DNA from: Burkholderiales bacterium | Lineage (GTDB): Bacteria; Pseudomonadota; Gammaproteobacteria; Burkholderiales; SG8-39 | Assembly (NCBI GenBank): GCA_038206915.1 | Contig: JBBRAI010000002.1 | Coordinates: forward strand, 78,079-142,078 | Direction of reading: 5' to 3' | Length of the DNA stretch: 64,000 nucleotides | Shown: piece after piece, positions 40,091 through 61,136 of the stretch | Layout of the letters: every line of letters starts with the position of its first letter | How positions within the stretch are numbered: the first letter of the stretch is position 1 | Notes under the pieces: generated by a model | Databases searched by the model: none | Told to the model about the DNA's origin: nothing | Seen by the model: the letters and a program-made list of their open reading frames with translations, nothing else | Program-made: the position numbers and the translations under genes

Positions 40091-40150
40091 TCTCTTACCG
40101 CTGTTTCCCGATTTCTTACCGTCATTAACCGCTTCTTGAGGAGATTTCAA

Positions 40151-41566: not shown

Positions 41567-41584
41567 TAAGGCGGCCGAACCAGG

Positions 41585-41613
41585 AAAAGGCGGGTAAGTC
41601 CCCGCCTTTTTTT
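41585..41613 (+). terminator. Intrinsic terminator after glnA
   Basis: AAAAGGCGGG-TAAGTC-CCCGCCTTTT plus T run. Confidence 0.85.
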
Positions 41614-41734
41614 ATCGACTTGCCGCGCAGCGCAGGGCGTTCCTCCAAGGCAAGGTCGGAGCCTTAGAAAAACTATTTGAAATCAGCCGGATAATGGCAT
41701 AGACTTAAACTTCATTCTGAGTGACCCGAGTTCT

Positions 41735-42223
41735 ATGGCACTGCGCACCGCCCGATGTCTGAGTCTGATCACCGCCTTCACCGGTGTGCTATCGCTGCCG
41801 GCGCTGGGCGACACATTCAAGTGTGTAGACGCGAACGGCCGCGCCACCTACACCAACATTAACGAAGAAACCCGCGGCAAGAACTGTACGCTGGTAATGC
41901 GGGAGATATCGGTGGTCCCCGCCATTCCGCCGGCGCGCGCGGCCAAAGCGCCGCCTTCTCCAGCGGGCTTCCCCAAAGTCGACCCGGCCACCCAGAAAGA
42001 CCGGGACCTGGGCAGGCGCAGGATTCTTGAGGACGAACTCAGCAGCGAGGAGAAGGCGTTGACGCAAGCCAAGGCGGACCTGACGCAGCAGGAATCGATT
42101 CGCAACGGCGACGAGCGGAACTACCAGCGCGTGATAGACCGCCTGCAGAAATACAAGGACGAGGTCGAGCGGCACGAGAAGAACGTCGAAGCGCTGAAGC
42201 GAGAGCTCAGCAGCGTCAGGTAG
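41735..42223 (+). CDS. DUF4124-domain exported protein
   Basis: Signal peptide, FKCVDANGRATYTN, FPKVD..TQ..RD, coiled coil; usual position between glnA and ntrB. Confidence 0.8.
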   Translation: MALRTARCLSLITAFTGVLSLPALGDTFKCVDANGRATYTNINEETRGKNCTLVMREISVVPAIPPARAAKAPPSPAGFPKVDPATQKDRDLGRRRILEDELSSEEKALTQAKADLTQQESIRNGDERNYQRVIDRLQKYKDEVERHEKNVEALKRELSSVR

Positions 42224-42294
42224 TCGCGCGTTTTCGGCGGCGCGGATACGCGCCGCTACGCCTCGGGTAGTCTCTATGCGGCGCTCCGATCCCT

Positions 42295-43335
42295 ATGTCA
42301 TCCAGTTCCTTTTCCGGTCTCGATCTGCTCGCCACGCCGGTGATCCTGGTGGACGACGAGTTGTGCATTGTGCATGCGAATCCGGCCGCCGAAGCTCTGT
42401 TCGCATTCAGCCTGAGGAACGTGAGCGGACACCCTTTGGCACAGTTGTTCTTCGATGCGGACGAGCTCATCGCCAGTCTGGGCGAGGTGCTCGTGCAAAG
42501 CTGGAGTTACACCGGCCGCGATCTTACGCTGACGCGCCCGGCGCAGCAGAGTCTGCATCTGAATTGCCTGATCACGCCGACCGAAACCAGCGCAGCCTGT
42601 TTCCTGATTGAATTTCGACCGATCGACCAGCAGCTCAAGCTTGCGCGCGAACAGCGGCAGCTGGACCAACAACAGGCGAACCGCGAGCTGATACGCAATC
42701 TCGCGCACGAAATACGAAACCCGCTGGGCGGGCTGCGCGGCTCGGCACAGCTGCTGGAGCGCGAACTCGACCGCCCCGATCTGCGCGAATACACCCAGGT
42801 CATCATCAAGGAAGCCGACCGCCTGCAGGTGCTGCTGGATCGGCTGCTCACGCCGCATCAACCGCCGCAGTTCGCCTCGCTGAATATTCACGAGGTGCTG
42901 GAGCGGGTCAGAAGCCTGGTGCAGGCCGAGTTCCTTGACGACATACGCATCGCGCGCGACTACGATGCCAGCCTGCCCGAACTGCACGGCGACAAGGAGC
43001 AGCTGATCCAGGCGGTGCTCAATATAGTGCGCAATGCGGCGCAGGCGATGAACGGCAGGGGAGAGATCGAATTCCGCACGCGCGCAGCGCGCCAGGTAAC
43101 TTTGGCCAAGCAGCGTTACAAGCTGGCATTAGAATTGCAAGTGGTGGATAAGGGTCCGGGGATTCCGGAGGAACTGCGCGAGCGGATTTTTTATCCTTTG
43201 GTATCGGGCCGGGAGGGCGGTAGCGGACTTGGGTTGACGCTGTCGCAGACGTTCGTGCAGCACCACCGCGGCACGATTGAATGCGACAGCAGGCCGGGGC
43301 GCACCTGCTTTACGATCATGCTGCCACTGGAGTAG
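42295..43335 (+). CDS. glnL: Nitrogen regulation sensor kinase NtrB
   Basis: PAS domain, LAHEIRNPLGGLRG, FYPLVSGREGGSGLGL. Confidence 0.95.
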   Translation: MSSSSFSGLDLLATPVILVDDELCIVHANPAAEALFAFSLRNVSGHPLAQLFFDADELIASLGEVLVQSWSYTGRDLTLTRPAQQSLHLNCLITPTETSAACFLIEFRPIDQQLKLAREQRQLDQQQANRELIRNLAHEIRNPLGGLRGSAQLLERELDRPDLREYTQVIIKEADRLQVLLDRLLTPHQPPQFASLNIHEVLERVRSLVQAEFLDDIRIARDYDASLPELHGDKEQLIQAVLNIVRNAAQAMNGRGEIEFRTRAARQVTLAKQRYKLALELQVVDKGPGIPEELRERIFYPLVSGREGGSGLGLTLSQTFVQHHRGTIECDSRPGRTCFTIMLPLE

Positions 43336-43421
43336 ATGCGCAATGGGCGATGCCTGATGGCTGAGCGCGGCGATCGCCGCGACTGACCGCTACCGGCGCT
43401 TCCATTGTTCATGGACAAAAC

Positions 43422-44831
43422 ATGAAACCAGTCTGGGTCATAGACGACGACCGCTCCATACGCTGGGTGTTTGAGAAGGCGCTGGCGCGCGAGGGCATTC
43501 CGTACAAGACTTTTTCCGGGGCGCAGGAGGCGCTGGATGCACTGGAACAGGGCGCGCCGCAGGTGCTCGTGTCCGATATCCGCATGCCAGGCACCTCGGG
43601 CCTGGAGTTGCTGAATAAGGTCAAGCAGCGCCATCCAGGCCTGCCCATCATTATCATGACCGCGTACTCCGATCTGGAGTCGGCGGTAGCGGCGTTCCAG
43701 GGCGGGGCGTTCGAGTACCTGCCCAAACCCTTCGATGTCGATCAGGCGGTGGACCTGATACGCCGCGCCATAGGCGAAAGCATCCGCGAAACCGAGGGCG
43801 AGGAAGCGCGCGAGACTTCCCCCGAGATTCTCGGCCAGGCGCCATCGATGCAGGAAGTGTTTCGCGCCATCGGCAGGCTGTCCCAATCCAACGCCACGGT
43901 GCTGATTACCGGAGAGTCGGGTACTGGCAAGGAGCTCGTCGCGCTGGCGCTGCATCGCCATTCCAGCCGCGCCGCAAGGCCCTTCGTCGCGATCAACACG
44001 GCGGCGATGCCCAGGGACCTGCTCGAATCGGAATTGTTCGGCCATGAGCGCGGCGCGTTCACCGGGGCGCAGACGATGCGCCGCGGGCGCTTCGAGCAGG
44101 CCGAGGGCGGCACGCTGTTCCTCGATGAAATCGGCGACATGCCGGCCGAGCTGCAGACACGCTTGCTGCGCGTGCTGTCCGATGGCCAGTTCTATCGCGT
44201 TGGCGGCCACCAGACGATAAAGGCCAATGTGCGCGTGATCGCGGCCACGCATCAGGACCTGGAGGAGCGCGTGCGCCAGGGTCTGTTCCGCGAGGACCTG
44301 TTCCATCGTCTCAATGTGATCCGGCTGCGCCTGCCGAGCCTGCGCGAGAGGCGCGAGGATATCGGCTTGCTCGCCAGGCATTTTCTTGCGAAGAGCGCGC
44401 ACGAACTCGGCGCCGAGGGCAAACGTTTGTCGAGGGAGGCTATGAGCTACCTGGCGGCGCAGGATTTTCCGGGCAATGTGCGCCAGCTTGAAAACCTGTG
44501 TCATTGGCTTACCGTCATGGCGCCGACGCAGACCATAGAGGTGGCGGACCTGCCGGCGGAGCTAAAACTTGCAGGCGGAAAATCTGCGGAGTCCGACTGG
44601 GTCGACGCATTGGAGCGCGAGGTCGAGCGCGCGTTCGCGCGCGGCGAAACCGGTATTCTGGACAAATTGGCGCAGGCCTTCGAAAAAGCGCTGATAGCCA
44701 AAGCGCTCGCGCGCACCGGCGGCAGGCGCATCGAGGCGGCAAACCTGCTCGGCATGGGACGCAATACGATCACGCGCAAAATCGCCGAACTCGGGCTTGA
44801 GGAAAAGGACGCTCCGGACGAGGCCGCCTGA
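43422..44831 (+). CDS. glnG: Nitrogen regulation protein NtrC
   Basis: Receiver, GESGTGKE, ESELFGHERGAFTGA, Fis-type HTH GRNTITRK. Confidence 0.95.
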   Translation: MKPVWVIDDDRSIRWVFEKALAREGIPYKTFSGAQEALDALEQGAPQVLVSDIRMPGTSGLELLNKVKQRHPGLPIIIMTAYSDLESAVAAFQGGAFEYLPKPFDVDQAVDLIRRAIGESIRETEGEEARETSPEILGQAPSMQEVFRAIGRLSQSNATVLITGESGTGKELVALALHRHSSRAARPFVAINTAAMPRDLLESELFGHERGAFTGAQTMRRGRFEQAEGGTLFLDEIGDMPAELQTRLLRVLSDGQFYRVGGHQTIKANVRVIAATHQDLEERVRQGLFREDLFHRLNVIRLRLPSLRERREDIGLLARHFLAKSAHELGAEGKRLSREAMSYLAAQDFPGNVRQLENLCHWLTVMAPTQTIEVADLPAELKLAGGKSAESDWVDALEREVERAFARGETGILDKLAQAFEKALIAKALARTGGRRIEAANLLGMGRNTITRKIAELGLEEKDAPDEAA

Positions 44832-44979
44832 GACGGTTCTGCCCGCCGGCGCTTGTGCCGCCGCTCAGACCTGGGATTGTCGGTTTCACAATCCGGGATG
44901 GAATTCGTATTGCGGAATGCGCCGCCGACCAATAAAATAGCTCCATTTTTTTCGCAAACCGCAACCTGGAGCTCCACCA

Positions 44980-46575
44980 ATGAGCGAGAAATTTCCCGGC
45001 GGCGTGGAAATCCACGGCGCGATTACACCGGAATTTGCGCAAATCCTCACGCCCGAGGCTGTTGCCTTCATAGCGAAGCTGTGCCGCAAGTTCGAACCGC
45101 GCCGGCAGGAATTACTGGCGTCGCGCGTAGTGCGCCAGAAAGAGTTCGACGCCGGCAAGCTGCCGGACTTCCTGGCGCAGACGGCCAGCGTGCGCAGCTC
45201 GCATTGGACGGTCGCGCCGCAGCCCGCCGATATGCTCGACCGCAGGGTCGAGATCACCGGGCCGACCGAGCGCAAGATGGTGATCAACGCGCTCAATTGC
45301 GGCGCATCTGTGTTTATGGCCGATTTCGAGGACGCACAGACGCCGACGTGGCACAACGCGGTCGACGGACAGATCAACCTGCGCGATGCGGTGCGCCGCA
45401 GCATCACCCTGGATCAGGGCGGGAAGAAATATCAGCTGAAGGACAAGACTGCGGTGCTGATGGCGCGGCCGCGCGGCTGGCATTTGAACGAAAAGCACGT
45501 ACTCATCGACGGCAAGCCGGTTTCCGGCAGCATATTCGATTTCGGGCTGTACTTTTTTCACAACGCCAAAGAGCTGCTCAAGCGCGGCAGCGGCCCGTAT
45601 TTCTACCTGCCGAAGCTGGAATCGCATCTCGAGGCGCGCCTGTGGAACGACGTCTTTGTGATGGCGCAATACGAACTCGACGTGCCGCAGGGTTCAATCA
45701 GGGGCACGGTGCTGATTGAGACAGTGCTGGCGGCGTTCGAAATGGACGAGATTCTATGGGAATTGCGCGACCACTCGGCGGGACTCAATATCGGCCGCTG
45801 GGACTACATGTTTTCCTGCATCAAGAAGTTCCGTTCCCACGACGAGTTCTGCCTGGCCGACCGCGTCCATGTCAGGATGACGGCGCGCTTCATGCGCGCC
45901 TATGCGCTGTTGCTGGTGAAGACCTGCCACCACCGGGGCGCGCCGGCCATGGGCGGCATGGCGGCGCAGATCCCGATCAAGAACGACCCGGCCGCGAACG
46001 ATGCGGCGATGACGAAGGTGCGCGAGGACAAGCTGCGCGAGGTGACCGACGGTTGCGACGGCACCTGGGTGGCGCATCCCGGTCTGGTGCCGATCGCCAA
46101 GGCGGTGTTCGACCAGTACATGCCCGGCGCCAACCAGTACGACCGGCAGCGTCCAGAAGTGAATATCACGGCGAAAGAGCTGCTCGATTTCGAGCCGGAG
46201 ACGCCGATCACCGAAGGCGGCCTGCGCTATAACATCTCGGTCGGCATCCAGTATCTGGGCGCCTGGCTCGCTGGCAACGGCTGCGTGCCGGTGTTCAATC
46301 TCATGGAGGACGCCGCCACCGCCGAAATTTCGCGCTCGCAGATCTGGCAGTGGATCCGCTCGCCTAAGGGCGTGCTCGACGACGGGCGCAAGGTGACCAA
46401 GGATTTGTTCCGTACTCTGCTCGCCGAGGAATTGCCCAAGGTGAAGACCTATCTGGGCGATGAGGCGTGGAACGCGGGCAAGTACGAACAGGCGGCGGAG
46501 TTGTTCGCGAAAATCACCACCGACGACAACTATGTCGAATTCCTTACGCTGCCCGCCTACGAACTGATCGACTGA
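44980..46575 (+). CDS. aceB: Malate synthase A
   Basis: [42 protein letters not shown]. Confidence 0.95.
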
Positions 46576-47898: not shown

Positions 47899-49523
47899 AT
47901 GCGTTCGATAACGCTCAAGTTCAAGATTGTCTTTTTTCTGGCGCTGGCGTTGACGCTCGCGATGCTGGTGTTCATGGTACTCGTCGTCCGCCACCAGCGC
48001 GAAGAGCTGCTGGACGACGCGGTAAGCCATGTCAACCAGATTTCGGAGGTGATCAAGAAAAGCACCCGCTTCGCCATGCTTACCAATCAGCCGGCTTATG
48101 TGGACAACATAATCCGCGACGTGGGCAACCATGGAAACATCGAAAAGGTCAGGATACTGAGCAAGGACGGTACGATCATCCACTCAACCTATCTGCCGGA
48201 ACTCGGGTTGAAAGTGGATCGAAAAGCCGAGGCCTGCGTGATCTGCCATCGCAACGACGCGCCACTGGAAGCGATTGTGCAAAACCAGCGCTCACGGGTC
48301 TTCATCACTCCGGAAGGCAGGCGCATGCTCGGCAGCATGAGCGTATTTCGCAACGAGCCATCGTGCTACACCGCCAACTGCCATGGGCACAAAAAGTCAC
48401 AGTCGGTCCTCGGCGTCCTCGACATCGTATATTCGCTCGACGACATCGATCGAAAAATGCAGACCAACGCGGTCACCATGGCGGCGTTGTCGCTGGGATT
48501 CATCCTGATCGCGGCACTCAGCGTGGGCTTCTTTGTGCACCGTCTGGTGTATGTGCCCCTGCGCGACCTCGAGGCCGGAGCGCAGCGGCTGTCGGCCGGG
48601 AACCTGGATGAGATGATCCCGGTGCGCAGCGACGACGAGTTCGGCCGCCTGGCGTCCTCGTTCAACTCCATGATGGCGGCGCTGCGCCAATCGGAAGCCG
48701 AGCTGCTGCAATGGGGCCACACGCTGGAGCAGAAGGTGGAGGAGAGAACCCAGGCACTGCGCATCGCAGAGACCGAGACGGCGCGCAGCGAAAAACTTGC
48801 GTCGGTGGGGCTGCTCGCCGCCGGCATCGCGCACGAACTGAACAATCCGCTCACCGGGGTGCTTACTTTCACCACGCTGCTGCGCAAGAAACTGTCCGAC
48901 GGAAACCCGGATGCTGAAGACCTGGACCTGGTGATCCGCGAAACCAAGCGCTGTGCGGCGATCATCAGGCGGCTGCTCGACTTCGCGCGCGAAAAAACAC
49001 CGGAAAAGAAATTCACCGATCTCAACCGGGTGATCGAGGATACGGCGCGGATCATCGAGCGGCCCGCTTCGTTTCGCGATATCGAGATCGCCATGGATCT
49101 CGATCCGGAGCTGCCGCAGGCCTGGATCGACGCCGATCTGATCAAGCAAGTCATCATGAATATGCTGGTCAATGCCCAGCACGCGATCGAGCACCAAGGC
49201 AGCATCACCGTGCGCAGCCGCAGGTGCGCGCATCCGAGAAGCCCAGGGCCCGGCATGGAGCCGGTGCCGACGCTGGAGATTGCGATCATCGATACCGGAT
49301 GCGGTATTCCGGAGAGGAACCTCAAACGGATCTTCGATCCCTTCTTCACCTCGAAGGAAGTGGGCAAGGGCACCGGGTTGGGCTTGTCCGTGAGTCACGG
49401 CATCGTCAAGGCGCACGGCGGCAGCATCGAGGTGGAAAGTACGGTCGGCAGGGGCTCGATCTTCCGCATCTATCTACCGGTGGAGCCTCCCGCGGGAGAC
49501 GCAAAAAGCAGCAGGAGCGGTCA

Positions 49524-49527
<4 letters not shown>
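47899..49527 (+). CDS. Membrane sensor histidine kinase with periplasmic heme-c motifs (TM-sensor-TM-HAMP-HisKA-HATPase)
   Basis: CVICH and CYTANCH between two TM helices; AHELNNPL, NAQHA, DTGCGI, FDPFFTSK, GTGLGL. Confidence 0.9.
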
Positions 49528-50951
<1,424 letters not shown>

Positions 50952-51122: not shown

Positions 51123-51163
51123 TTGACAATTGTCAACCGACCGGGCAGGGCCGTGCGTAAGCT
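51123..51163 (+). promoter_or_regulatory. FNR/Crp-family box with candidate -10
   Basis: Perfect palindrome TTGAC-AATT-GTCAA (51123-51136), with TAAGCT 21 bp downstream. Confidence 0.6.
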
Positions 51164-51460: not shown

Positions 51461-52624
51461 ATGATTCTGCTAATTGTCGTCGTTACGATCATCGTCTTCA
51501 TACTGGTTGACGTTTCGCTGCGCCTCTACTTCCAAAGAAGGCAGGCGCAGAAGCTCAGAATAGAGCGCGAAGCGGCACTGGACATCGGACTGAAGCTGGA
51601 CTATTCGGATGAGGCGACGACGCTGAAGCGGGTGGAGGTCAAAGACCCGAAAGCGAGAATCCTGGCGGTGGACGACGAACCGATCATTCTGGACAGCTTC
51701 AGGAAGATTCTCGTTGTCGCCGGGTACAGCATCGACACCGTGGAAAAAGGACGCGAAGCGCTGGGTCTTATTCGGAAGCGCGATTACGACTTCGTCTTTA
51801 CCGATCTGAAAATGCCGGAAATGGACGGCTTGGAAGTGACCAAGGCGGTAAAACATCTGCGCCCCGACATCGACGTAATCGTGATAACCGGCTATGCATC
51901 AATCGAGACGGCCGTGGAAACCATGAAATATGGCGCGATGGACTACGTACAGAAGCCATTTACCGAAGATGAGCTGATCAATTTCTTCAACAAGTGCCTG
52001 ATCAAGCGAAATGACAGGAACGAACGCCAGATGAAGCCGACGGTCCGGCTCATTACTCCATCGACAAAGGAATCCGGCTCACAGCGCGAGTTCAATGTTC
52101 CCGCCGGGATTTTTGTCTCACCGAATCACACCTGGGTGAACATAGAAATGAACGGCACGGTGCGCATCGGGCTCGACGACTTCGTGAGAAAGACAATAAA
52201 AGGCATCGACGCCGTAGTACTGCCCGGCGTCAACAAGCAGGTAAGGAAGGGCGAGCCGCTGTTTTCGATCAAACACAATTCCCACAGCACCAGCATCGCG
52301 TCCCCGATCAGCGGCAAAGTAACCTCGCTGAATACGGAACAGGTCGAGCATCCGGAGTGGATCTCGTCCAAGCCGTTTGAACTGAGCTGGATGTGCTGCA
52401 TCGAACCGTCCAATCTCCCGGAAGAGCTTCGTTCGCTGAAGATCGGCGTGGATTCCGTCAAATGGTACAAAGAGGAGATAGACAGGTATGCCGAAATCGT
52501 GAGGGCGGCGGAAAGCGGGAGCGCGCAAGCCGGGTCATCGGGCAAGGCGCGCGACGAAGCAGGCAACCGGGAAGCGGACGAAAGGATTGCGGGTGAGTTC
52601 GCAAGGGCGTTTCTCGCTCGATAA
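51461..52624 (+). CDS. N-terminal TM + receiver domain + GcvH-like (non-lipoylated) domain fusion
   Basis: Hydrophobic N-terminus; ILAVDDE...FTDLKMP...ITGY...KPF; then HTWV...VRIGLDDF...V.KGEPL...SPISGKV..LN...P...W (GcvH fold); GGAGG ribosome-binding site. Confidence 0.85.
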   Translation: MILLIVVVTIIVFILVDVSLRLYFQRRQAQKLRIEREAALDIGLKLDYSDEATTLKRVEVKDPKARILAVDDEPIILDSFRKILVVAGYSIDTVEKGREALGLIRKRDYDFVFTDLKMPEMDGLEVTKAVKHLRPDIDVIVITGYASIETAVETMKYGAMDYVQKPFTEDELINFFNKCLIKRNDRNERQMKPTVRLITPSTKESGSQREFNVPAGIFVSPNHTWVNIEMNGTVRIGLDDFVRKTIKGIDAVVLPGVNKQVRKGEPLFSIKHNSHSTSIASPISGKVTSLNTEQVEHPEWISSKPFELSWMCCIEPSNLPEELRSLKIGVDSVKWYKEEIDRYAEIVRAAESGSAQAGSSGKARDEAGNREADERIAGEFARAFLAR

Positions 52625-52676: not shown

Positions 52677-53141
52677 ATGGTCATGATCAAACACGTTCTC
52701 GCAGTGCTCGGAGCGCTTGTGCTCTTCGCAGCATGGCCGCTGGTCAACGCAAATGCCGCGGATATGCCGGCGGAGAGAGTCTTTCCTTCGTCCGCGGGAG
52801 AAGTGATTTTCCACCACGAGATGCACGTGAAGGACCTCGCAATCAAATGTGCCGATTGTCACCATGCGATATACGCGAAGAAGTTGAGTACGCCGCACCC
52901 CGATTATCTGAAAGCATCCGCGATCAAGTGCGAGATTTGCCACAACGAGTCCGAGAAGATCAAAAAGAAAGCCTATACATGCTCGGCATGTCACGCGACC
53001 AATCCGATGAATATCGCGGACGAGACGCTCAGCGCAAAGGTGGTGATTCACAAGCAATGCTGGAAGTGCCATCCGGTGGCCACCGGAAAGGACGCTAGCA
53101 CCGCCTGCGGAAAATGCCATTCAGGGAAGAAGGGGTTCTGA
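52677..53141 (+). CDS. Class III (c3-like) cytochrome c with five CXXCH motifs
   Basis: Signal peptide; VIFHHEMH; CADCHH, CEICH, CSACH, H..CWKCH, CGKCH. Confidence 0.88.
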   Translation: MVMIKHVLAVLGALVLFAAWPLVNANAADMPAERVFPSSAGEVIFHHEMHVKDLAIKCADCHHAIYAKKLSTPHPDYLKASAIKCEICHNESEKIKKKAYTCSACHATNPMNIADETLSAKVVIHKQCWKCHPVATGKDASTACGKCHSGKKGF

Positions 53142-53185: not shown

Positions 53186-54070
53186 GTGGATAGAAGACAG
53201 TTTTTGATTGTGTCCGCAACGGTCGGGGCAGGCGGCATACCCAACGTGAACATAAAGGCGGATGCCACAAAGGAACCCAAGGAATTTGTCGGGGTGCTGG
53301 TCGATACCACCAGGTGCATCGGGTGCAGGTCCTGCGAGGTGGCCTGTTCGGAGACGCACGACAACTATGTCCCGGACATAACCAAGGACAACGCGCTCGA
53401 GAAAATCCGCGATACGAGCGAACGGCAGTACACGGTCGTAAACCGCTTCATGACGGAAAAAGGCGAGGTGTTCGTCAAGAAGCAATGCTTGCATTGCTGG
53501 CAGCCGGCCTGCGCGGCGGCCTGTCTGGTAAACGCGATGCTCAAGACTAAGGAGGGGCCGGTAACCTGGGACGGAGACAAATGCATGGGTTGCAGGTTCT
53601 GCATGATCTCCTGCCCCTTTGATATCCCGAAATTCGAGTATTCCGGCTGGAACCCGAGAATAATGAAATGCAACATGTGCTACGAGCGGCTACAGGAAGG
53701 CAAGAAACCTGCCTGCGTCGAAGCGTGCCCGGCGGACGCGCTGATGTTCGGCCAAAAAAGAGAGCTGATGGAAATTGCGCGGCATCGCGTTTATAGCCAT
53801 CCGGACAAATATGTGCACCACATTTATGGGGAAAACGAGGCCGGCGGAACCGGCTGGCTATACCTGTCAGCCGTTCCGTTCAATCAAATCGGTTTCAGAA
53901 CGGATCTCGGCACAACCCCCTATCCGGAATACACCAGGGAATTTCTGATCTCCATTCCGCTCATCGAATTCGGCGTCCCTGCGTTTCTGCTGGCGCTGAA
54001 CATGCTGACGGACAGAAAGGATGAATTGCGTGAAGACCGCGACTGGACAGAGCGGGGGGCGGACAAATGA
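53186..54070 (+). CDS. Tat-exported 4x[4Fe-4S] protein, HybA/HmcB-like
   Basis: DRRQFL Tat motif; CIGCRSCEVAC, CLHC..PACAAAC, CMGCRFCMISCP, CNMC...PACVEACP; YGENEAGGT; C-terminal TM. Confidence 0.9.
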   Translation: MDRRQFLIVSATVGAGGIPNVNIKADATKEPKEFVGVLVDTTRCIGCRSCEVACSETHDNYVPDITKDNALEKIRDTSERQYTVVNRFMTEKGEVFVKKQCLHCWQPACAAACLVNAMLKTKEGPVTWDGDKCMGCRFCMISCPFDIPKFEYSGWNPRIMKCNMCYERLQEGKKPACVEACPADALMFGQKRELMEIARHRVYSHPDKYVHHIYGENEAGGTGWLYLSAVPFNQIGFRTDLGTTPYPEYTREFLISIPLIEFGVPAFLLALNMLTDRKDELREDRDWTERGADK

Positions 54071-55269
54071 ATACCGCAGCGATCGCGACGAACGAATTCG
54101 TCAGGTTCGGGAAATTCTTTCTGCAGGAGCTGAAGCCCAGAGGAAAGTGGCTCACGCCGTTCAATGTCATTTCCATCCCGATCATCCTGCTTGGGTTGTT
54201 CATACTGTATTTCCGTTTTACCCAGGGGCTAGGATCGGTCACCAACCTTTCGCAGAAATATCCATTCGGCTTCTGGATCGGCTTTGACGTGATGACCGGC
54301 GTCGCGCTGGCCGGCGGCGCCTACGTGATCTGTTTTGTCGTTTATGTCCTGAGGCTCGAAAAGTATCACTCGATTCTCAAGGTAACCATCCTGAACGGAC
54401 TGCTGGCGTATGTCTTTTATTCGGGAGCATTGTTGCTGGATCTGGGCCGGCCCTGGCACATCATCAATCCCATTATCGGAAATTCCTTCGGCTACAACTC
54501 GGTGCTGTTCCTGGTGGCCTGGCATTTTCTGCTTTATACGGGGGCCTTGTTTCTCGAGTTTTCGCCGACCATCGCCGAATGGGCGCACTGGGAAAGGCTG
54601 CGCAGATTTCTTACCAGCCTGACGCTCGGCACCGTCATAGTGGGCATTACGCTCTCGATGCTCCATCAGTCGGGCATCGGCGCGATGTTCCTGATGGCCA
54701 AGCCGAAAATACACCCGCTCTGGTATTCCGAATACATACCGCTGCTCTACTTCGTTTCGAGCATCTTTGGCGGACTGGCAATGGTCATTTTCGAGGGCAC
54801 GGTCAGCGGCAAGGTATTCAGCAATCTGATCGGCCGGACGTCCCACCATTCGCACGACGAAATAGTGCTTGGACTGGCCAAGGGAGCGGCGATCACAATG
54901 TTCGTGTACTACTTCTTCCTCGCATTTATTTTCATGCACGGAGAAAAATGGACGCTGCTCAACGGCCCGTGGGGATACTGGTATCTTATCGAGGTCATCG
55001 GCTTTGTGCTGATACCGTGCTTCATGTTTGCCTATGGAGTAAGAAACAAGAGGCTCGGTGTGATCAAGGTCGCTGCCGTCATGACCGTATTGGGCGTAAT
55101 TCTGAACCGGCAGAACGTGTGTCTGATCGCCTATAACTGGTACGTACCCGTAGCCGACAAGTACTACCCCTCCTGGCAGGAGTTTGTCGTCACGCTCATG
55201 GTGGTATTCGTTGAAGTATGGGTCTTCAGATGGGTCGTTACGCGCATGTCCGTCTTCAGTAAAGACTAG
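54067..55269 (+). CDS. NrfD/PsrC-family quinone-interacting membrane protein, HybB/HmcC-like
   Basis: GLGSVTNLS..YPFGFWIGFDV..GVALAGG, DLGRPW, LSMLHQSGIG, HPLWYS; about 10 TM. Confidence 0.9.
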   Translation: MNTAAIATNEFVRFGKFFLQELKPRGKWLTPFNVISIPIILLGLFILYFRFTQGLGSVTNLSQKYPFGFWIGFDVMTGVALAGGAYVICFVVYVLRLEKYHSILKVTILNGLLAYVFYSGALLLDLGRPWHIINPIIGNSFGYNSVLFLVAWHFLLYTGALFLEFSPTIAEWAHWERLRRFLTSLTLGTVIVGITLSMLHQSGIGAMFLMAKPKIHPLWYSEYIPLLYFVSSIFGGLAMVIFEGTVSGKVFSNLIGRTSHHSHDEIVLGLAKGAAITMFVYYFFLAFIFMHGEKWTLLNGPWGYWYLIEVIGFVLIPCFMFAYGVRNKRLGVIKVAAVMTVLGVILNRQNVCLIAYNWYVPVADKYYPSWQEFVVTLMVVFVEVWVFRWVVTRMSVFSKD

Positions 55270-55511: not shown

Positions 55512-57374
55512 ATGATCACCAAGATCGGCTTACGACTGATTATTGCAGTCGGCATCATTACGGTGCTGATCGTCGGGGCGTTCTCCTACCTCAGCATCAG
55601 AGCCCAAACCAGTGCATTGATAACCCAGGCGGGAATCAATGCAAACCAGTTGAGCGAAGCAATAAAGAACAGCACGCTGGCGAGCATGCTGGGAAACAGG
55701 AGCGACGAAGTACATTCGATAATAGATACCGTGTCGCACGATTCGAGCATCACGGAGATCCGGATACTCAACAAGGAAGGGGTGGTGCGATTTTCTTCCC
55801 GCAAGGATTCGATCGGGAAGATGGTCAACAAGCACGCGGAAAGCTGCTACGCCTGCCACACCGAAAATGCGCCCTTGCAGCGCCTGCCTATCGACGAAAG
55901 GATGCGCATATACAGGATCAGCCCGGAGTCTTCGCGCACGCTCGCGGTGATAAATCCGATCTACAACGAAAAATCCTGCTATCAGGCGGCCTGCCACGCG
56001 CACACAAAGGACCAGACGGTGCTCGGGGTGCTCGACGTGAAAATGGACTTGAGCCATGTAGACCGGCAAATCGAGGAAAACAAATTCCGCTTGATCGTGT
56101 TTGCCGCTATTTCGGTTCTTGCACTGAGCATCTTCATTGCCTATTTCGTGCGGAAATGGGTCGGCCGGCCCGTCAGCGAACTGGTAAGGGCGACCAAGCA
56201 GGTGAGCGCGGGCAATCTGAACTACGCGATTGAAAATCCAGGGAAGGATGAACTGGGAATCCTCGCAAGCTCGTTCAACAAGATGACCAAGAACCTGGCT
56301 GAAGCGAAGCTGCAGCTTTTCCAAGCTGACAAGATGGCTTCGCTCGGGCGGCTGGCGGCGGGCGTCGCCCACGAAATAAACAACCCGCTGACGGGGGTAT
56401 TGACCTACAGCAGCTTTCTCCTCAAAAGGACCAAGAACGATCCCGAGATGCAGGAAAACCTGGAAGTGATCGTCAGGGAGACGATACGCAGCAGGGAAAT
56501 CGTCAAAAGCCTGCTCGACTTCTCACGCCAGTCGCCTCCGAAAAAGCACGATGCGGACATATACAATATCCTGCGAAATGCAATTGAGGTGGTTGCCAGC
56601 CAGCTATTGCTCAAGAAAATAGAACTCGACGCCCGCTTCGACGCGTCCCTGCCGGAAATAAAGGTGGATGCAAATCAGATCCAGCAGATCGTCATAAATT
56701 TGCTGGTAAATGCCGCCGACGCGATTGGAGACGGCGGGGGAAGGATTTCCATAACGCCGTCGCTGATCTCTCTGGCGCCGCATGGATTGGCACAGATAAA
56801 GGCTGCAGTTTGCTCCAAAGGGCATGACCTGATGGACAGCGAGTTGAGAATCTATGGACTCCCGACCGTGAAGGTCAAAGTCGTCTCCAACGGCAATGTC
56901 GGGAGCGTCAACCTCGATCCTGTCTATGGGAAGCACAGGCACGAGTACGGCATCGAAATCGAGGGTGGAAAGAATTTGCAGGTATCGTGCCCGCAATGCA
57001 ACGTGTCTTTGATCGAAGAGAATGCCAGGTGCCCGAGCTGCGGCTCGTCGATTTATCAGTTCGAAGTGCTGTCGCACGGAGTCTTCGAGGGCTGTACCAA
57101 TCCCAGATGCAATTGGGAAAGATGGCAGGTAATGGATGAAGCCGGGCACAAGGACTACATAGAAATCAGGATCTCGGACAACGGTCAAGGCATTGCGAAA
57201 GAAGATTTGGCCAGAATATTCGAGCCGTTTTTCACGACGAAAGGGGAGCACGGAAACGGGCTCGGATTGGCGGTCACCTGGGGAATAATCGACAGCCACG
57301 ACGGAACGATCAATGTCGAAAGCGAGCTTGGAAAGGGCACGACGTTCATCGTTCATTTGCCCCTGCCCGCCTAG
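55512..57374 (+). CDS. Second heme-c-motif sensor histidine kinase, with a Cys-rich insertion in the HATPase domain
   Basis: CYACH and CYQAACH periplasmic; HAMP; AHEINNPL; N box NAADA separated from DNGQGI by a ~127-aa insert (CSKGH, CPQC, CPSC, CTNPRC). Confidence 0.9.
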   Translation: MITKIGLRLIIAVGIITVLIVGAFSYLSIRAQTSALITQAGINANQLSEAIKNSTLASMLGNRSDEVHSIIDTVSHDSSITEIRILNKEGVVRFSSRKDSIGKMVNKHAESCYACHTENAPLQRLPIDERMRIYRISPESSRTLAVINPIYNEKSCYQAACHAHTKDQTVLGVLDVKMDLSHVDRQIEENKFRLIVFAAISVLALSIFIAYFVRKWVGRPVSELVRATKQVSAGNLNYAIENPGKDELGILASSFNKMTKNLAEAKLQLFQADKMASLGRLAAGVAHEINNPLTGVLTYSSFLLKRTKNDPEMQENLEVIVRETIRSREIVKSLLDFSRQSPPKKHDADIYNILRNAIEVVASQLLLKKIELDARFDASLPEIKVDANQIQQIVINLLVNAADAIGDGGGRISITPSLISLAPHGLAQIKAAVCSKGHDLMDSELRIYGLPTVKVKVVSNGNVGSVNLDPVYGKHRHEYGIEIEGGKNLQVSCPQCNVSLIEENARCPSCGSSIYQFEVLSHGVFEGCTNPRCNWERWQVMDEAGHKDYIEIRISDNGQGIAKEDLARIFEPFFTTKGEHGNGLGLAVTWGIIDSHDGTINVESELGKGTTFIVHLPLPA

Positions 57375-57767: not shown

Positions 57768-59057
57768 ATGCAAGGTAGAGGATTTGCAACGCTGGCGCTG
57801 GCCGCAATTTTCGGATTGGCCGGAGCGCTATTCCTGAGTCACGGCGTCGCCCGCGCTGCGGTCGCTTCCAACAAAATCGACCAGCAATGTCTCGCCTGCC
57901 ATTCGACCGCGGGGATGGAGAAGGAACTGCAGGGCGGAGAAAAGCTTTCCCTGCACATCGACGGGGCGAAGTTCGCGAAGTCGGTCCATAGCGTGATCGG
58001 CTGCGCCGTCTGCCACGGCAGCGTTACGCTCGAGAATCACCCGCCGTCCAAGACTAAGATCCCCAGCCTGCGCGAGTACTCGCTCGAGCGCGCGAAGGTC
58101 TGCAGCACCTGCCACGGCGACATCGCCAAGCAGTACGAGAGCAGTATTCATGCCTCGCTAGTCCGCGAGGGCAACCCGGTCGCGCCTATCTGCACCGACT
58201 GCCACAATCCGCATACGGCGAAGGCGAAGTCCGGCTATGACGCGGCCAGCGGGGCTCCGTGCAGCAAATGCCACGGGTCCATCTACGAGGCGTACGCCGG
58301 CAGCGTGCATGGCCAGTCCGGGCTGGGATGCCCCAGTTGCCACCGCGCCCACGACGTGAGCCCCGCCACCAAGGGAGATCAGCTGAAAAGCGCCTGCCTC
58401 GAGTGCCACCAGGGCGCGCTGGCCTCCCATCAAGTCTGGCTGCCGAATGCCGGACAGCATTTCGAGACGGTGTCCTGCCCCGTCTGCCACTCGCCCACGG
58501 CCAAGCGCAAGGTCGATCTCAGGTTATACAACAACTCGGCGAAAGAGCGCGTAGCCGAGAAGGAGGGCGTACCGCAGTTCGAAAACCAGGCGCGCTTGGC
58601 CGACAGAAGGGGCGTTGGCCTGGACGCGATGGCGCTGCGCAGCTTGCTGCAGGGATTCAACCGCGAGGGCGCCAACGATCAGGTCACGCTGCGGGGCCGG
58701 CTGGAGGTCAGCACGGGCATCGAAGCGCATCGGCTCGCGCGCAGCGCCCATGCGGTGCGCGATTGCGCCAGTTGCCACCAGCAGGGCGCCGGCGCATTTC
58801 AGAGCGTTACGGTATCGATCGTCGGTCCTGACGGAAGACCGGTGCACTATGGCGCGAAGCCGGAGGTCCTGCACTCCGTGATATCGATGGATTCGGTGGG
58901 CGGCTTCTACGCCATCGGCGGCACGCGCATCAAGCTGCTGGACTGGCTGCTCGTCCTCGCGCTGATAGGCGGCATCGGCGGCCCGCTTGGCCATATGACG
59001 GTCCGCTGGCTGTTCAAGCGATACGCGAAGAGAATCAGCGGCAAAGAGGACTCCTGA
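57768..59057 (+). CDS. Nonaheme periplasmic cytochrome c with C-terminal membrane anchor
   Basis: Nine CXXCH motifs (CLACH, CAVCH, CSTCH, CTDCH, CSKCH, CPSCH, CLECH, CPVCH, CASCH), repeated SVH/SIH, signal peptide, C-terminal TM ending in GH. Confidence 0.9.
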   Translation: MQGRGFATLALAAIFGLAGALFLSHGVARAAVASNKIDQQCLACHSTAGMEKELQGGEKLSLHIDGAKFAKSVHSVIGCAVCHGSVTLENHPPSKTKIPSLREYSLERAKVCSTCHGDIAKQYESSIHASLVREGNPVAPICTDCHNPHTAKAKSGYDAASGAPCSKCHGSIYEAYAGSVHGQSGLGCPSCHRAHDVSPATKGDQLKSACLECHQGALASHQVWLPNAGQHFETVSCPVCHSPTAKRKVDLRLYNNSAKERVAEKEGVPQFENQARLADRRGVGLDAMALRSLLQGFNREGANDQVTLRGRLEVSTGIEAHRLARSAHAVRDCASCHQQGAGAFQSVTVSIVGPDGRPVHYGAKPEVLHSVISMDSVGGFYAIGGTRIKLLDWLLVLALIGGIGGPLGHMTVRWLFKRYAKRISGKEDS

Positions 59058-59136
59058 AGCGCCGCAACCGGAGGCCGGCCCGGGGTTTCAGGTCGAGCCG
59101 CCGCGGCCGATGCCACCAAGCAAAAGGAACTATGCA

Positions 59137-59775
59137 ATGCCAAGAATCTACGTTCACCCGCTCCCGGTCAGGATCTGGCACTGGATCAACGCCCTCGGTT
59201 TCCTGGCGATGCTCTTCACCGGATTTCAGATTCGTTATATCGGATTGTTCGATCTGATGCCGTTCCGCACGGCGGTAGTACTGCATAACTGGATCGGGTT
59301 TGTGCTCATCGGCAATTTCTTCATCTGGCTGTTGTTCTACCTGTTTACGGACAAGATCCGGGTGTACCACCCGGAATTGAGCCCGATGAAGCATTTCCGC
59401 GCGAGCTTCCGCCAGGCCATGTTCTACGGCTACGGCATTTTCAAGGGCGACCCCAATCCGCACCACGTCAGCGTCTACGACAAGTTCAACTCAATGCAAA
59501 GCATGAGCTATCAAGTCATCATGCTGCTGCTGGTGCCGCTGCAGTTCTATACCGGCGTGCTGCTGTGGGATGTGATGCGCTTCTCCGGCATGATCGACGT
59601 GCTCGGCGGGGTACGCGTGGTGGATACGGCCCATGTACTCATTTTCATTTTCTTCGCCGGATTCATCCCGATGCATATCTATCTTGCAACCCTAGGCCAC
59701 ACCCGCATGGCGCACATCAAATCCATGGTGAACGGTTACGAGGAAGTCGAAGAAGAGCACGGCGGCGCCATATAG
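59137..59775 (+). CDS. Cytochrome b (FdnI/HyaC-type, 4 TM)
   Basis: RIWHWINA, VLHNWIG, KFNSMQ, DTAH, PMHIYL, SMVNGY; AAGGA ribosome-binding site. Confidence 0.88.
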   Translation: MPRIYVHPLPVRIWHWINALGFLAMLFTGFQIRYIGLFDLMPFRTAVVLHNWIGFVLIGNFFIWLLFYLFTDKIRVYHPELSPMKHFRASFRQAMFYGYGIFKGDPNPHHVSVYDKFNSMQSMSYQVIMLLLVPLQFYTGVLLWDVMRFSGMIDVLGGVRVVDTAHVLIFIFFAGFIPMHIYLATLGHTRMAHIKSMVNGYEEVEEEHGGAI

Positions 59776-59810: not shown

Positions 59811-59848
59811 AAACGCCGGGGAGCATTCCGCTCCCCGGCGTTTGTTTT
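59811..59848. terminator. Bidirectional intrinsic terminator between convergent operons
   Basis: AAACGCCGGGGAGC-ATTCC-GCTCCCCGGCGTTT with A-rich and T-rich flanks. Confidence 0.85.
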
Positions 59849-59868: not shown

Positions 59869-60657
59869 CTATTTCGTATCGGGGTGATCGGCCAGGGCGT
59901 TGGCGCCGAATTTGCCCCAGGCCTGGAACCCGAACCAGAGCAGCATGCCGAGCCCTACGATCGGTCCGATGATGACATATGCCAGCCCGATGAAAGGCGC
60001 GGCCAGGAATATGGCGGTGCTTTTCGCTATGCTGGAAGTGACCGGCAGCGGATGCAGCATTGCCGCTTCCGCGGATTTCTTCTGTTGCGACTGGATCGCC
60101 ATCCAGGCGAGCATGCCCAGACCAACGATGGGGAAGGTGAGGATATAGGCCAGCCCGACGAAGGGCGCCGCCAGGAACAGAGCGACATTCTTGACCCCGC
60201 GCGCGACGCTCTGTACTGCACCTGATGCGGGAGCCGGCGCAGTTTCGGCCGCGACCGGAGCGGCAGCGGTGTCGTGCACGGCAATGACCCGTTCCGACAG
60301 CGCTTTTTCCGCGCTGCTCTCTATCATCTCGGGCGACAGCGGCTTGCGCAGGAAACTGGACACGCCGGCGGCCTGCGCCCTGGCTTCGTTGTCGGGCGAA
60401 CCGTATCCGGTAACGATCACCACCGGCAGCCAGGGCTGACGCAGTTTCAGCTGCTCGGCCATTTCAAGGCCGCTCATGCCCGGCATCTTGATGTCGGTGA
60501 ATACGAGGTCGTACTTTTCCGCGTCAAGCTTGCTTAGCGCCTCCTGTCCGTTGCTCGCGGTGATTACCGCGTAGCCTTTGCCGGAAAGAACCCGGTCGAA
60601 ACTCTTTGCGACCACCGGGTCGTCGTCGACTACCAGAACTTTGTGTAAGGCACTCAT
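59869..60657 (-). CDS. Receiver-domain protein with duplicated C-terminal hydrophobic repeat
   Basis: KVLVVDDD...FTDIKMP...TGY...KPL, then two FLAAPF(V/I)GLAY...PIVGLGML repeats. Confidence 0.85.
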   Translation of the reverse strand: MSALHKVLVVDDDPVVAKSFDRVLSGKGYAVITASNGQEALSKLDAEKYDLVFTDIKMPGMSGLEMAEQLKLRQPWLPVVIVTGYGSPDNEARAQAAGVSSFLRKPLSPEMIESSAEKALSERVIAVHDTAAAPVAAETAPAPASGAVQSVARGVKNVALFLAAPFVGLAYILTFPIVGLGMLAWMAIQSQQKKSAEAAMLHPLPVTSSIAKSTAIFLAAPFIGLAYVIIGPIVGLGMLLWFGFQAWGKFGANALADHPDTK

Positions 60658-60674
60658 GACATTCTCCTTGCGCT

Positions 60675-61136
60675 TCAATTGGTGAAATTGCTGGATTTCA
60701 AACCGGAACGGGCGGCTGCGCCGATTCCGGCGTCCGCGCGCTGCTTGTCTTTGTGCAGCGCCCATTTCTTCTGCGTGATGGCGCCGCTGGCGACGTTGAT
60801 CACTTCATCCGGACCCACCGGCTTGGCCAGGTAGTCGTACGCGCCAAGGCGTACCGCCTCCTTGGCAGTCTCTATGTTCGGGTAGCCTGTGATGATGACG
60901 ACTTCGGTCTCGGGCCACATTTGCTTGATCGTTTTGAGCACCGTCATTCCGTCCATGCCCGGCATGCGCAGGTCGAGCAGCACCACATCGGCGGGCCGTT
61001 GCTCCATCACGCTCAAGGCCTCGCTGCCGTTCTTGACCACTTCGACGTCGCAGTGAATGCTCGAGAGCGTGCGGATATGGCTTAGGCGCACCACTTCTTC
61101 GTCGTCCACCACCAGAATTTTGGTCTTCTCGTCCAT
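60675..61136 (-). CDS. Stand-alone response regulator receiver
   Basis: ILVVDDE, LLDLRMP, ITGY, YLAKP; GGAG ribosome-binding site. Confidence 0.88.
   Translation of the reverse strand: MDEKTKILVVDDEEVVRLSHIRTLSSIHCDVEVVKNGSEALSVMEQRPADVVLLDLRMPGMDGMTVLKTIKQMWPETEVVIITGYPNIETAKEAVRLGAYDYLAKPVGPDEVINVASGAITQKKWALHKDKQRADAGIGAAARSGLKSSNFTN

Follow-up and report, generated by a model that had tools for sequence, protein, structure and literature searches.

A receiver protein with a predicted membrane anchor and an H-protein fold lacking the lipoyl-lysine heads an NrfD-type respiratory gene cluster

The regulator gene and its neighbours

The window, that is, the whole stretch of 64,000 nucleotides analysed here, comes from a Burkholderiales bacterium and contains a gene for a 387-residue protein, with GGAGG placed 6 nt ahead of its ATG (Table 1). 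The original prediction described the product as a transmembrane helix and a receiver followed by a GcvH-like fold at approximately 52097–52410. This turned out to be right, the Pfam match to GCV_H lying close to that interval. The database matches listed (119 besides the query) are 76–87% identical to the protein, and all of them carry both PF00072 and PF01597. In an AlphaFold2 model built on a 58-row alignment (mean pLDDT 82), a helix at residues 2–45 covers the N-terminal region, where the MV.LIV..T start is conserved among orthologues. Basic residues (R21, R26, R27, K31, R33, and R36) lie around and after the transmembrane helix, which by the positive-inside rule suggests an N-out, C-in topology.

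Table 1. Coordinates of the regulator gene, its parts, and the neighbouring genes in the window
Feature	Position	Strand	Basis
Upstream kinase HK1 (47899–49527, same haem motifs as HK2) and NtrC-type sigma-54 activator	47899..50951	+	Pfam, motifs
TM-REC-GcvH-like protein gene (387 aa, P0001)	51461..52624	+	ORF and translation
N-terminal transmembrane helix, residues 2–22	51464..51526	+	Read off the sequence
Receiver domain, residues 67–174 (phospho-acceptor D115, codon 51803–51805)	51659..51982	+	Pfam Response_reg
Long alpha-5/linker helix, residues 169–190, joining receiver and H-fold	51965..52030	+	AlphaFold2 model; NtrC1 match extends through residue 191
GcvH-like barrel without lipoyl-lysine, residues 222–331	52124..52453	+	Pfam GCV_H, Foldseek
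Ser274 codon, lipoyl-lysine position	52280..52282	+	Ungapped alignments to 1dxm, 3ift, 3hgb, 3a8i
C-terminal helical extension, residues 330–385	52448..52615	+	Model helices 330–357 and 366–385
Small periplasmic cytochrome c, 5 CxxCH	52677..53141	+	Pfam Cytochrome_C7, Cytochrom_CIII; CxxCH count
HmcB/HybA-like iron-sulfur subunit, twin-arginine N-terminus (MDRRQFL)	53186..54070	+	Fer4_11
HmcC/HybB-like NrfD-family membrane subunit	54067..55269	+	Pfam NrfD
Sensor histidine kinase HK2, CxxCH and CxxxCH in the periplasmic part	55512..57374	+	HAMP, HisKA, HATPase_c

The receiver is recognized by Pfam with 5.5e-31 and 107.5 bits. D71, D72, D115, T143, and K165 are all present, each being kept in 53–56 of the 58 orthologue rows. 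Judged by these residues, the receiver is intact, with the acidic pocket, the phospho-Asp, the Thr, and the Lys all in place. Its best PDB sequence match is the receiver plus linker of NtrC1 (1zy2, 4.3e-22, residues 67–191). The protein thus resembles NtrC1/DctD-type regulators in its receiver, in the linker helix that follows, and in the retained phosphorylation residues. Unlike them, it has neither an AAA+ nor a DNA-binding domain, and its receiver is located between a transmembrane helix and the H-fold. A Pfam search of the 387 residues finds GCV_H (6.6e-18, 65.2 bits vs. a cut-off of 22.2) as the sole domain past the receiver, and the protein fits none of the known output types of response regulators, whether DNA-binding, enzymatic, or stand-alone CheY-like.

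The genes that follow resemble those of the Hmc and HybAB systems. The iron-sulfur and membrane subunits score 331 and 393 bits against the NCBIfam models HmcB and HmcC, below the respective cut-offs of 420 and 550, and the window also differs from the Hmc complex in lacking the 16-haem HmcA and HmcDEF. No HmcF/DsrK-type CCG subunit was found in the cluster. For this reason, and because the HmcB-like subunit has a twin-arginine N-terminus, the cluster encodes no soluble part on the cytoplasmic side other than the H-fold and the kinase core. Gene linkage makes HK2 a candidate kinase of the receiver. Also encoded in the window are a multihaem cytochrome carrying a transmembrane helix at its C-terminus and a cytochrome b.

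A scan for the sigma-54 consensus yields 70 matches in the window, where 86.8 are expected; the 510-bp gap ahead of the gene contains no match. Scans for sigma-70 promoters and terminators reveal no excess over chance. Between 51461 and 59775, no terminator-like site occurs in the intergenic gaps on the + strand; the sole + strand site of that span (55170–55182) is inside the HmcC-like gene.

In the fetched part of three canonical hmcABC loci with sufficient flank (L125, L127, and L128), neither an H-fold gene nor a receiver match was found. At locus L130 (the same place as L123), two H-fold genes are divergent from hmcA. Rrf1 of the Desulfovibrio hmc operon was considered as a named relative and dropped; the literature search yielded nothing useful on it, and the three canonical loci show no such match.

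An H-protein fold without the lipoyl-lysine

The C-terminal domain of the model superimposes on E. coli GcvH (3a7l/3ab9) with a target-normalised TM score of 0.90–0.93 and an rmsd of 1.2–1.7 Å, as determined by Foldseek. The two share the barrel-sandwich fold of PF01597 at 23–26% identity, and they have in common the fold markers H223-x-W225, G237-x-D239, P282-x-x-G285, N291, P305-[FY]306, and W310. In a protein atlas, solely generic GCV_H clusters were retrieved, with scores of 0.82–0.86, under the 0.9 mark. The window protein differs from GcvH in that it adds a helical tail of ~55 residues, a transmembrane helix, and a receiver. Its gene also lies away from gcvT and gcvP, having cytochrome, iron-sulfur, and NrfD neighbours instead. 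The absence of gcvP/T and lipoate ligase genes from the window, noted in the original prediction, is correct: the canonical gcvT-gcvH(VIESVKAAS)-gcvP set sits on contig C43, the window being part of contig C2.

The principal difference concerns the lipoyl-lysine, which is a serine here. The phmmer alignments to the H-proteins of pea, M. tuberculosis, and E. coli run through the hairpin without gaps, and in four ungapped alignments S274 stands opposite the lipoyl-lysine, exactly at the codon that had been named for it. The ESVK motif is absent, and K271 stands opposite its conserved Glu. The hairpin strands of the model comprise residues 266–272 and 275–280; therefore, the turn is N273-S274 and K271 is within a strand. 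Hairpin residues 271–276 are variable both in the 58 orthologue rows and in the family rows. The H-protein fold is retained and the lipoyl-lysine is absent, and the domain is predicted to be unable to carry lipoic acid.

A lipoylated K271, which would make the protein a regulated lipoyl carrier, is highly improbable. This lysine is only three residues ahead of the canonical position, and genes of the BPL_LplA_LipB family are present in the genome, on contigs C38 and C4. However, K271 faces the Glu and lies off the turn, and no more than 21 of the 58 orthologue rows and 24 of the 154 family rows have a lysine there. Lipoyl domains generally lose the modification once the lysine is shifted off the turn. 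The case that would have counted against the original prediction, with the lysine of IKHN in the lipoyl turn, was not seen in the alignments or in the model.

The loss of the defining residue, together with an NCBIfam GcvH score (NF002270) of 65.1 bits that falls below the cut-off of 117, could also mean that the domain is a functionless, decaying remnant of a duplicated gcvH. We regard this as the least credible of the explanations, since the full fold is predicted at high confidence, the fold residues and the tail residues W335, E339, and R342 are conserved across phyla, the reading frames are intact in the loci examined, and there are thousands of relatives.

The H-protein fold has been found outside glycine cleavage before. 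In the parts of the sources available, LbpA of the sHdr system and S. aureus GcvH-L likewise occur in redox contexts, and the lipoylated GcvH-like LbpA works with Hdr-like systems (PMC6067878). According to the accessible part of another source, lipoylated GcvH-like carriers keep a strictly conserved, lipoylated lysine (10.64898/2026.10.01.755906). As far as these partial accounts go, LbpA and GcvH-L therefore differ from the window protein and most of its family, in which the lysine is missing.

The LbpA precedent raises the question of whether the fold could hold a small group in some other manner, be it on a different modified residue, as a Cys312 persulfide, or as a non-covalent ligand. 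The invariance of C312 (58/58 receiver-form rows) is in line with such a carrier or sensor, and so are fusions of the same fold to CCG or FlpD redox enzymes and to acetyl-CoA synthetase. Nevertheless, C312 stands opposite Ile/Leu/Phe of the solved H-proteins and in the wider family is replaced in a manner typical of a buried strand position (C68, V26, Y17, and L17 of 154); it looks like a core beta-strand position, not a reactive site. The hairpin is variable, as described above, and no lipoate ligase, LipA, or Hdr gene lies within the window. We consider this explanation quite improbable.

The same residues bear on the suggestion, made in the original prediction, that the domain possibly binds a metal or a thiol; a His-rich loop and a WMCC pair had been noted there. 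The pair is indeed present at residues 310–313, and the loop has two histidines, H272 and H275; "His-rich" is an overstatement, as these are His in only 12 and 13 of the 58 orthologue rows. C313 is Cys in 20 of the 58 rows. Since neither the loop nor the second Cys is conserved and C312 occupies a hydrophobic core position, metal or thiol chemistry is unsupported, and binding through either element was rejected on conservation grounds.

Conservation of the gene block and of the wider family

A set of 57 loci was collected with a peptide pattern specific to the receiver subfamily, using a 7-row alignment, and 49 of them include 4.2 kb or more of downstream sequence. In 46 of these 49 loci, the receiver-form gene is directly followed by those for the cytochrome c, the HmcB-like protein, and the HmcC-like protein, a count that describes this subfamily only because of the pattern by which the loci were found. 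With the same scope, the haem-motif kinase HK2 is encoded immediately after the HmcC-like protein in 41 of the 49 loci and at another place of the locus in 5, and the module is absent directly downstream in 3 (L055, L057, and L058). The source MAGs are labelled Betaproteobacteria, Gammaproteobacteria, Ignavibacteria, KSB1, Calditrichota, Acidobacteriota, and Myxococcota. The proposed place of the gene at the head of a redox-complex operon thus holds over many phyla. Carriers of the gene block are mostly uncultured bacteria of sediment, soil, and groundwater.

The receiver form is part of a large family, of which 3328 representatives are recovered at E ≤ 1e-3, and 1168 when the limit is set at ≤ 1e-10. 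Among the best 150 members, 90 have an N-terminal hydrophobic helix without a receiver (84 of these being 200–299 residues long) and 21 have a receiver; the family consists mostly of ~230-residue proteins made of a transmembrane helix, a lysine-less H-fold, and a helical tail. Across 154 family rows, the lysine column contains G53, D23, A15, S14, and K8, and the column after it R75 and K28. In the tail, W335, E339, and R342 are kept in 136, 139, and 112 of these rows. The window protein has the N-terminal helix, the lysine-less GCV_H fold, and the tail with W-x3-E-x2-R that mark the family, and it scores 225.8 bits (E 7.8e-67) when its genome is searched with a profile of 36 members. None of 300 further genomes sampled from the phylum to which the window belongs has a member at E ≤ 1e-28.

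Our literature search yielded no description of a lysine-less H-fold family or of a signalling output built from a cofactor-carrier fold that lacks the cofactor, and no receiver-GCV_H fusion appeared among the matches listed. Thousands of related genes are labelled in the sources as glycine cleavage H-protein, CheY-like protein, or response regulator.

Linkage to the respiratory genes extends to members without a receiver. In a sample of 20 regions from the phylum of genome G340, a lysine-less H-fold gene lies beside HmcB and/or HmcC homologues in 14, and in 6 regions the HmcC gene runs into the H-fold gene with a nominal overlap of 22 nt (longest-ORF starts). Of the 9 same-genus genomes with the regulator, 7 also carry an HmcC orthologue, whereas none was found in the 31 relatives without the regulator that were searched. 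This co-occurrence may reflect only the gain and loss of one gene block.

Taken alone, the gene neighbourhood fits both a subunit of the module and a signalling partner of the kinase or activator. In the latter case, the H-fold would bind the sigma-54 activator or a kinase and act, tethered to the membrane, as a co-regulator, an anti-activator, or a phosphate sink, and the output would still be the transcription of respiratory genes. A kinase and an NtrC-type activator do lie directly upstream in the window, an arrangement that recurs in L011 only, among the 57 loci, and a kinase-activator pair is found beside many plain family members in the G340-phylum sample. Moreover, in 6 of its 20 regions, family members are accompanied by kinases and activators, and no HmcB/C homologue lies within about 8 kb; multiple paralogous REC-H-fold genes often follow a kinase gene. 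On the other hand, an NtrC-type gene was seen in the flanks of just some of the 57 loci (e.g., L011, L030, L041, L045, L051, L055, L057, and L059), whereas the module and HK2 occur in nearly all. The conserved core of the subfamily loci includes no DNA-binding regulator, and the plain ~230-residue forms, which have no receiver, are encoded by genes that abut the HmcC gene. This purely signalling role appears to be unlikely, although it is the strongest competitor.

A candidate docking subunit of quinone modules

In our preferred reading, the protein is a membrane-tethered response regulator at the cytoplasmic face whose output is a lipoate-free H-fold; it would dock onto the quinone module as a subunit under the control of phosphorylation, without acting through transcription. 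We put the probability of this at roughly 0.48, i.e., slightly short of even. The repurposing of the H-fold as a receiver output, as originally suggested, is favoured by the kept fold, the lost lysine, and the lack of any other output domain behind the intact receiver; the metal/thiol component of that suggestion falls away. A direct effect of the signal on respiration is probable, as the gene heads a cytochrome/iron-sulfur/quinone cluster that many phyla have in common.

We assume the following sequence of events. HK2 would sense the periplasmic or quinone-pool redox state via its haem motifs and phosphorylate D115. The NtrC1-type receiver and the long helix that links it to the H-fold would then pack differently, uncovering or covering the H-fold and the helical tail. 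These would gain or lose a protein contact at the inner membrane face, for which the NrfD-type subunit is the most likely partner and the kinase another possible one. If contacts are switched in this way, the output is post-translational control of the quinone module, not transcription. Lipoate, aminomethyl transfer, and thiol chemistry would play no part. A complex prediction that paired the HmcC-like protein with the full-length regulator scored 0.00 in both runs (alignments A5 and A4), which were performed without controls, and this score weighs neither for nor against binding.

Two sub-threshold Pfam matches, NQRA_N (E 0.0032) and RnfC_N (E 0.028), both under their cut-offs, may be mentioned here. 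NQRA_N and RnfC_N represent a cofactor-less lipoyl-like barrel that belongs to a peripheral subunit of respiratory complexes in the membrane. The barrel-sandwich domains of NqrA and RnfC are an analogy only, there being no significant sequence relationship to the window protein.

The same H-fold is fused in relatives to acetyl-CoA synthetase, to a Fer4-FlpD-Molydop_binding protein, and to an FAD-oxidase-CCG protein. As these enzymes are unrelated, the partner of the fold is not necessarily an NrfD protein. A broader generalization is tentative and, in our estimate, somewhat unlikely to hold in full: the lysine-less H-fold could be a hitherto unrecognised type of subunit that docks onto NrfD-type quinone modules from the cytoplasm. 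In the receiver form, a haem-sensing kinase would switch the respiratory complex on and off, or between coupling modes, by phosphorylation-controlled docking and with no change in expression. Elsewhere, the fold would act as a homotypic or heterotypic tag bringing other enzymes, e.g., the acetyl-CoA synthetase and redox-enzyme fusions, to the membrane site. Response regulators that act on a respiratory enzyme instead of DNA are rare. If the docking model is true, it would provide a direct route from periplasmic redox sensing to the control of quinone-linked electron flow, and a role could be assigned to thousands of genes that now carry generic labels.

The Geobacter CbcBA-BccR locus is described with a set of genes similar to that of the window, in which a multihaem cytochrome with a C-terminal transmembrane helix is joined by a cytochrome b and by a sigma-54 activator plus kinase (10.1101/2021.04.15.440034). 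The available part of that source makes no mention of an H-fold protein for the cbcBA locus, the word "glycine" occurring 0 times in its main text. It calls GSU0596 of the cbcBA operon only a response regulator. The idea that GSU0596 is a family member was dropped. In the window, the gene block adjoins a CbcBA/BccR-like low-potential respiration locus.

The regulator and its H-protein domain

The regulator starts with a hydrophobic stretch (residues 2-22) followed by six Arg/Lys, so that by the positive-inside rule the protein past residue 22 is probably cytoplasmic. Pfam places a receiver at residues 67-174 (5.5e-31) and GCV_H at 222-331 (6.6e-18, 65.2 bits vs. a cut-off of 22.2), with no further domain above its cut-off. 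The receiver has D71, D72, the phospho-acceptor D115, T143 and K165; among solved structures, the NtrC1 receiver and linker helix match best (4.3e-22, regulator residues 67-191). In an AlphaFold2 model from a 58-sequence alignment (mean pLDDT 82, pTM 0.54), a long helix (169-190) connects the receiver with a beta-barrel, and two helices (330-357 and 366-385) lie C-terminal to it. As determined by Foldseek, the barrel superposes on H-proteins from E. coli, Thermus, cattle and humans (target-normalised TM 0.89-0.93, rmsd 1.2-1.9 Å). Together with the Pfam match this bears out the GcvH-like fold of the original prediction, and the anatomy described here is almost certainly right.

Regulator residues 205-345 were aligned by phmmer to 13 solved H-proteins, and the hairpin was inspected in four of these alignments. 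All four run without gaps across it, placing S274 (codon 52280-52282) in the lipoyl-lysine column and aligning K271 with the Glu of ESVK. The modelled strands of the hairpin cover residues 266-272 and 275-280, which makes N273-S274 the turn. The serine and its codon are therefore those proposed earlier, and K271, the nearby lysine that might have occupied the turn, does not. The NCBIfam GcvH model gives 65.1, below its cut-off of 117. As had been noted, gcvP/T and lipoate ligase genes are absent from the window: a canonical gcvT-gcvH-gcvP lies on contig C43 of the same genome, its H-protein reading VIESVKAAS, and the LplA/LipB-family genes lie on contigs C38 and C4. The domain is thus an H-protein by fold that lacks the defining lipoyl-lysine, and, since the lysine, the NCBIfam score and the gcvT/P context all fail, it is not classed as GcvH.

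The original prediction of a repurposed, phosphorylation-linked H-fold can be kept, but its suggestion of metal or thiol binding finds no support in residue conservation. Among 58 orthologue rows, His occurs at H272 in 12 and at H275 in 13, and Cys at C313 in 20. C312 is Cys in all 58; its column holds Ile, Leu or Phe in the pea, M. tuberculosis and E. coli H-proteins, and C68, V26, Y17 and L17 across the wider family (n = 154). Variation of this kind is expected at a buried position in a strand, and C312 therefore lends no support to such chemistry.

The lysine-less family and its gene neighbourhoods

A search with residues 196-387 against 1.84 billion cluster representatives yielded 3328 proteins at E ≤ 1e-3, 1168 at ≤ 1e-10 and 17 at ≤ 1e-30. 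The best 150 of the 3328 were sorted by a rough hydrophobicity criterion and by their match to a receiver profile. An N-terminal hydrophobic helix without a receiver was found in 90, 84 of them within 200-299 aa; 21 have a receiver, eight with the helix too and the other 13 mostly N-terminally truncated fragments; 39, many of them fragments, have neither. The lipoyl column reads G53, D23, A15, S14, E11, N9 and K8, and the next column R75 and K28 (n = 154). Beyond the H-protein fold markers, the first helix of the tail has W335, E339 and R342 as conserved family residues, and most plain forms (about 230 aa, without the receiver) end in a DGG...G.L...D..W..F...FL block. In a FastTree tree of 153 domain rows, a weak method, one supported 40-row clade takes in 21 of 22 receiver-bearing rows; it further includes five plain forms of full length and 13 rows with a truncation or no N-terminal helix. 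This distribution would fit one or a few receiver insertions. Four proteins of a family alignment (P0133, P0136, P0137 and P0164) carry a receiver-sized insert in which the DD pair, along with other residues of a receiver, has been lost; with a TM helix on one side and the H-fold on the other, these inserts look like pseudo-receivers.

Species-representative genomes were scanned with a pattern from seven close sequences, which gave 57 loci of the receiver form, all from MAGs; among their labels are Betaproteobacteria/Burkholderiales, Gammaproteobacteria/Xanthomonadales/Woeseiaceae, Ignavibacteria, Bacteroidota, KSB1, Calditrichota, Acidobacteriota, Myxococcota and Desulfobacterota-type names. 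Eight stop no more than 2.3 kb past the regulator gene, and the counts use the other 49. Homologues of the cytochrome c, HmcB-like and HmcC-like genes follow the regulator immediately in 46 of the 49; a homologue of the downstream kinase HK2 comes next in 41 of these and elsewhere in the locus in five. The order in L034 and L048 was read separately, since the automatic tally had taken a paralogue as the main match. The exceptions are L055, L057 and L058, the last with a more distant HmcB/C pair in that place. In loci outside Betaproteobacteria, the genes after the kinase usually encode a soluble REC-GCV_H protein and a second REC-GCV_H paralogue of the membrane type (Pfam-confirmed in L033); neither occurs in the window, and the regulator is the sole family member in its genome. 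The conserved core of these loci contains no DNA-binding regulator.

Of 22 genomes from the same genus, 9 have the regulator, and 18 further relatives all lack it; 300 sampled genomes of its phylum gave no family member at E ≤ 1e-28. An HmcC orthologue accompanies it in seven of the nine and is absent from all 31 relatives without it; in G015, one of the two exceptions, the regulator lies at a contig end. The block looks like an accessory unit, gained and lost as a whole.

In the phylum of genome G340, 66 of 201 sampled genomes have family matches at E ≤ 1e-28, frequently as several tandem genes. From each of the 20 genomes that scored best next to G340 itself, the top-scoring place was taken, a chosen rather than random set. 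HmcB and/or HmcC homologues adjoin an H-fold gene in 14 of these 20 regions, frequently in the order H-fold, HmcB, HmcC, H-fold and close to genes for a haem-motif kinase and an NtrC-type activator. The HmcC gene abuts the H-fold gene in six regions, with a nominal 22-nt overlap that depends on longest-ORF starts. These plain members look like fixed accessory subunits. The remaining six regions (L112, L114, L118, L120, L121 and L124) have no HmcB/HmcC homologue within about 8 kb, which favours the main rival explanation, a purely signalling role aimed at the sigma-54 activator or a kinase; so does the HK1/NtrC pair upstream of the regulator in the window.

Proposed output and comparison with known systems

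We give direct contact with the respiratory module, as the output of the regulator, a probability of roughly 0.45-0.5. The cytochrome c has 5 CxxCH. Because the HmcB-like protein bears a twin-arginine leader and no HmcF/DsrK-type cytoplasmic subunit was found in the operon, the H-fold is the operon's only soluble cytoplasmic part besides the kinase core. In the receiver form, the NtrC1-type receiver stands between membrane anchor and H-fold. HK2, with its periplasmic CxxCH and CxxxCH, would phosphorylate D115; the receiver and linker would then repack, and the H-fold and tail would bind or release a partner protein, most likely the NrfD-type subunit, at the face of the membrane. Such an output would be non-transcriptional. 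The results themselves establish the anatomy, the loss of the lysine, the conservation and the gene linkage, from which phosphotransfer and contact are inferred. Family H-folds also sit C- or N-terminally on longer proteins (L118, L122 and P0143, the last with three GCV_H copies fused to an FAD-oxidase/4Fe-4S/CCG protein), which suggests a general docking or regulatory tag, not strictly NrfD-specific.

The described GcvH-like proteins LbpA, GcvH-L and HdGcvH_1 all keep a lipoylated lysine, according to published work including 10.64898/2026.10.01.755906, whereas the regulator domain lacks it. The HmcB-like and HmcC-like proteins resemble those of Hmc/Hyb, yet score below the NCBIfam HmcB/HmcC cut-offs. 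In having a 9-CxxCH cytochrome with a C-terminal TM helix, a cytochrome b, and a sigma-54 activator with kinase, the window is similar to the Geobacter cbcBA/bccR locus (10.1101/2021.04.15.440034). Searches of openly accessible main texts turned up no H-protein described as lysine-less, membrane-anchored or fused to a receiver. To that extent the output of this response regulator, an H-protein fold lacking its cofactor, is undescribed.

Other features of the window

Features of the window and H-fold fusions in other loci
Feature	Location	Strand	Remarks
Upstream genes	39890-46575		glutamine synthetase, PAS histidine kinase with NtrC-type regulator, malate synthase; ordinary housekeeping context
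HK1	47899-49527		upstream kinase
Palindrome	51123-51136		TTGACAATTGTCAA; perfect, 14 bp
Regulator ORF	51461-52624	+	387 residues; GGAGG 6 nt 5' of ATG
HK2	55512-57374		downstream kinase
Cytochrome c, then cytochrome b	57768-59775		9 CxxCH and C-terminal TM helix; Ni_hydr_CYTB type
Hairpin	59811-59843		15 bp, GC-rich, with T-runs
Response regulator	59869-60765	-	298 aa; C-terminal half is two copies of hydrophobic segment AAPF.GLAY....P.VGLGML
Fer4-FlpD-Molydop_binding fusion	L118:7998-10913	-	GCV_H-family domain in longer protein
Acetyl-CoA synthetase fusion	L122:4112-6751	-	GCV_H-family domain in longer protein

Each kinase has a single CxxCH, at residue 113 or 112, and a single CxxxCH, at residue 156; both motifs lie in the periplasmic part, past the first TM helix and ahead of HAMP, and suggest haem-c-binding redox sensors. 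The HATPase_c match of HK2 covers only profile positions 35-110 (residues 547-619). Ahead of it, about residues 420-546 are Cys-rich with weak zinc-ribbon matches (DZR, Zn_ribbon) and look like a ~125-residue insertion within the ATPase domain. HK2 homologues are similar in length in most related loci.

A gap of 510 bp separates the NtrC-type gene from the regulator gene and contains the palindrome; a search of this gap for -24/-12 elements, allowing up to 2 mismatches, gave no match. Pfam assigns no output domain to the 298-aa response regulator. Most betaproteobacterial loci have its homologue just ahead of the REC-H-fold gene and in the same orientation; in the window it is instead downstream and convergent. 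The hairpin separating it from the cytochrome b gene is likely a terminator, possibly active in both directions.
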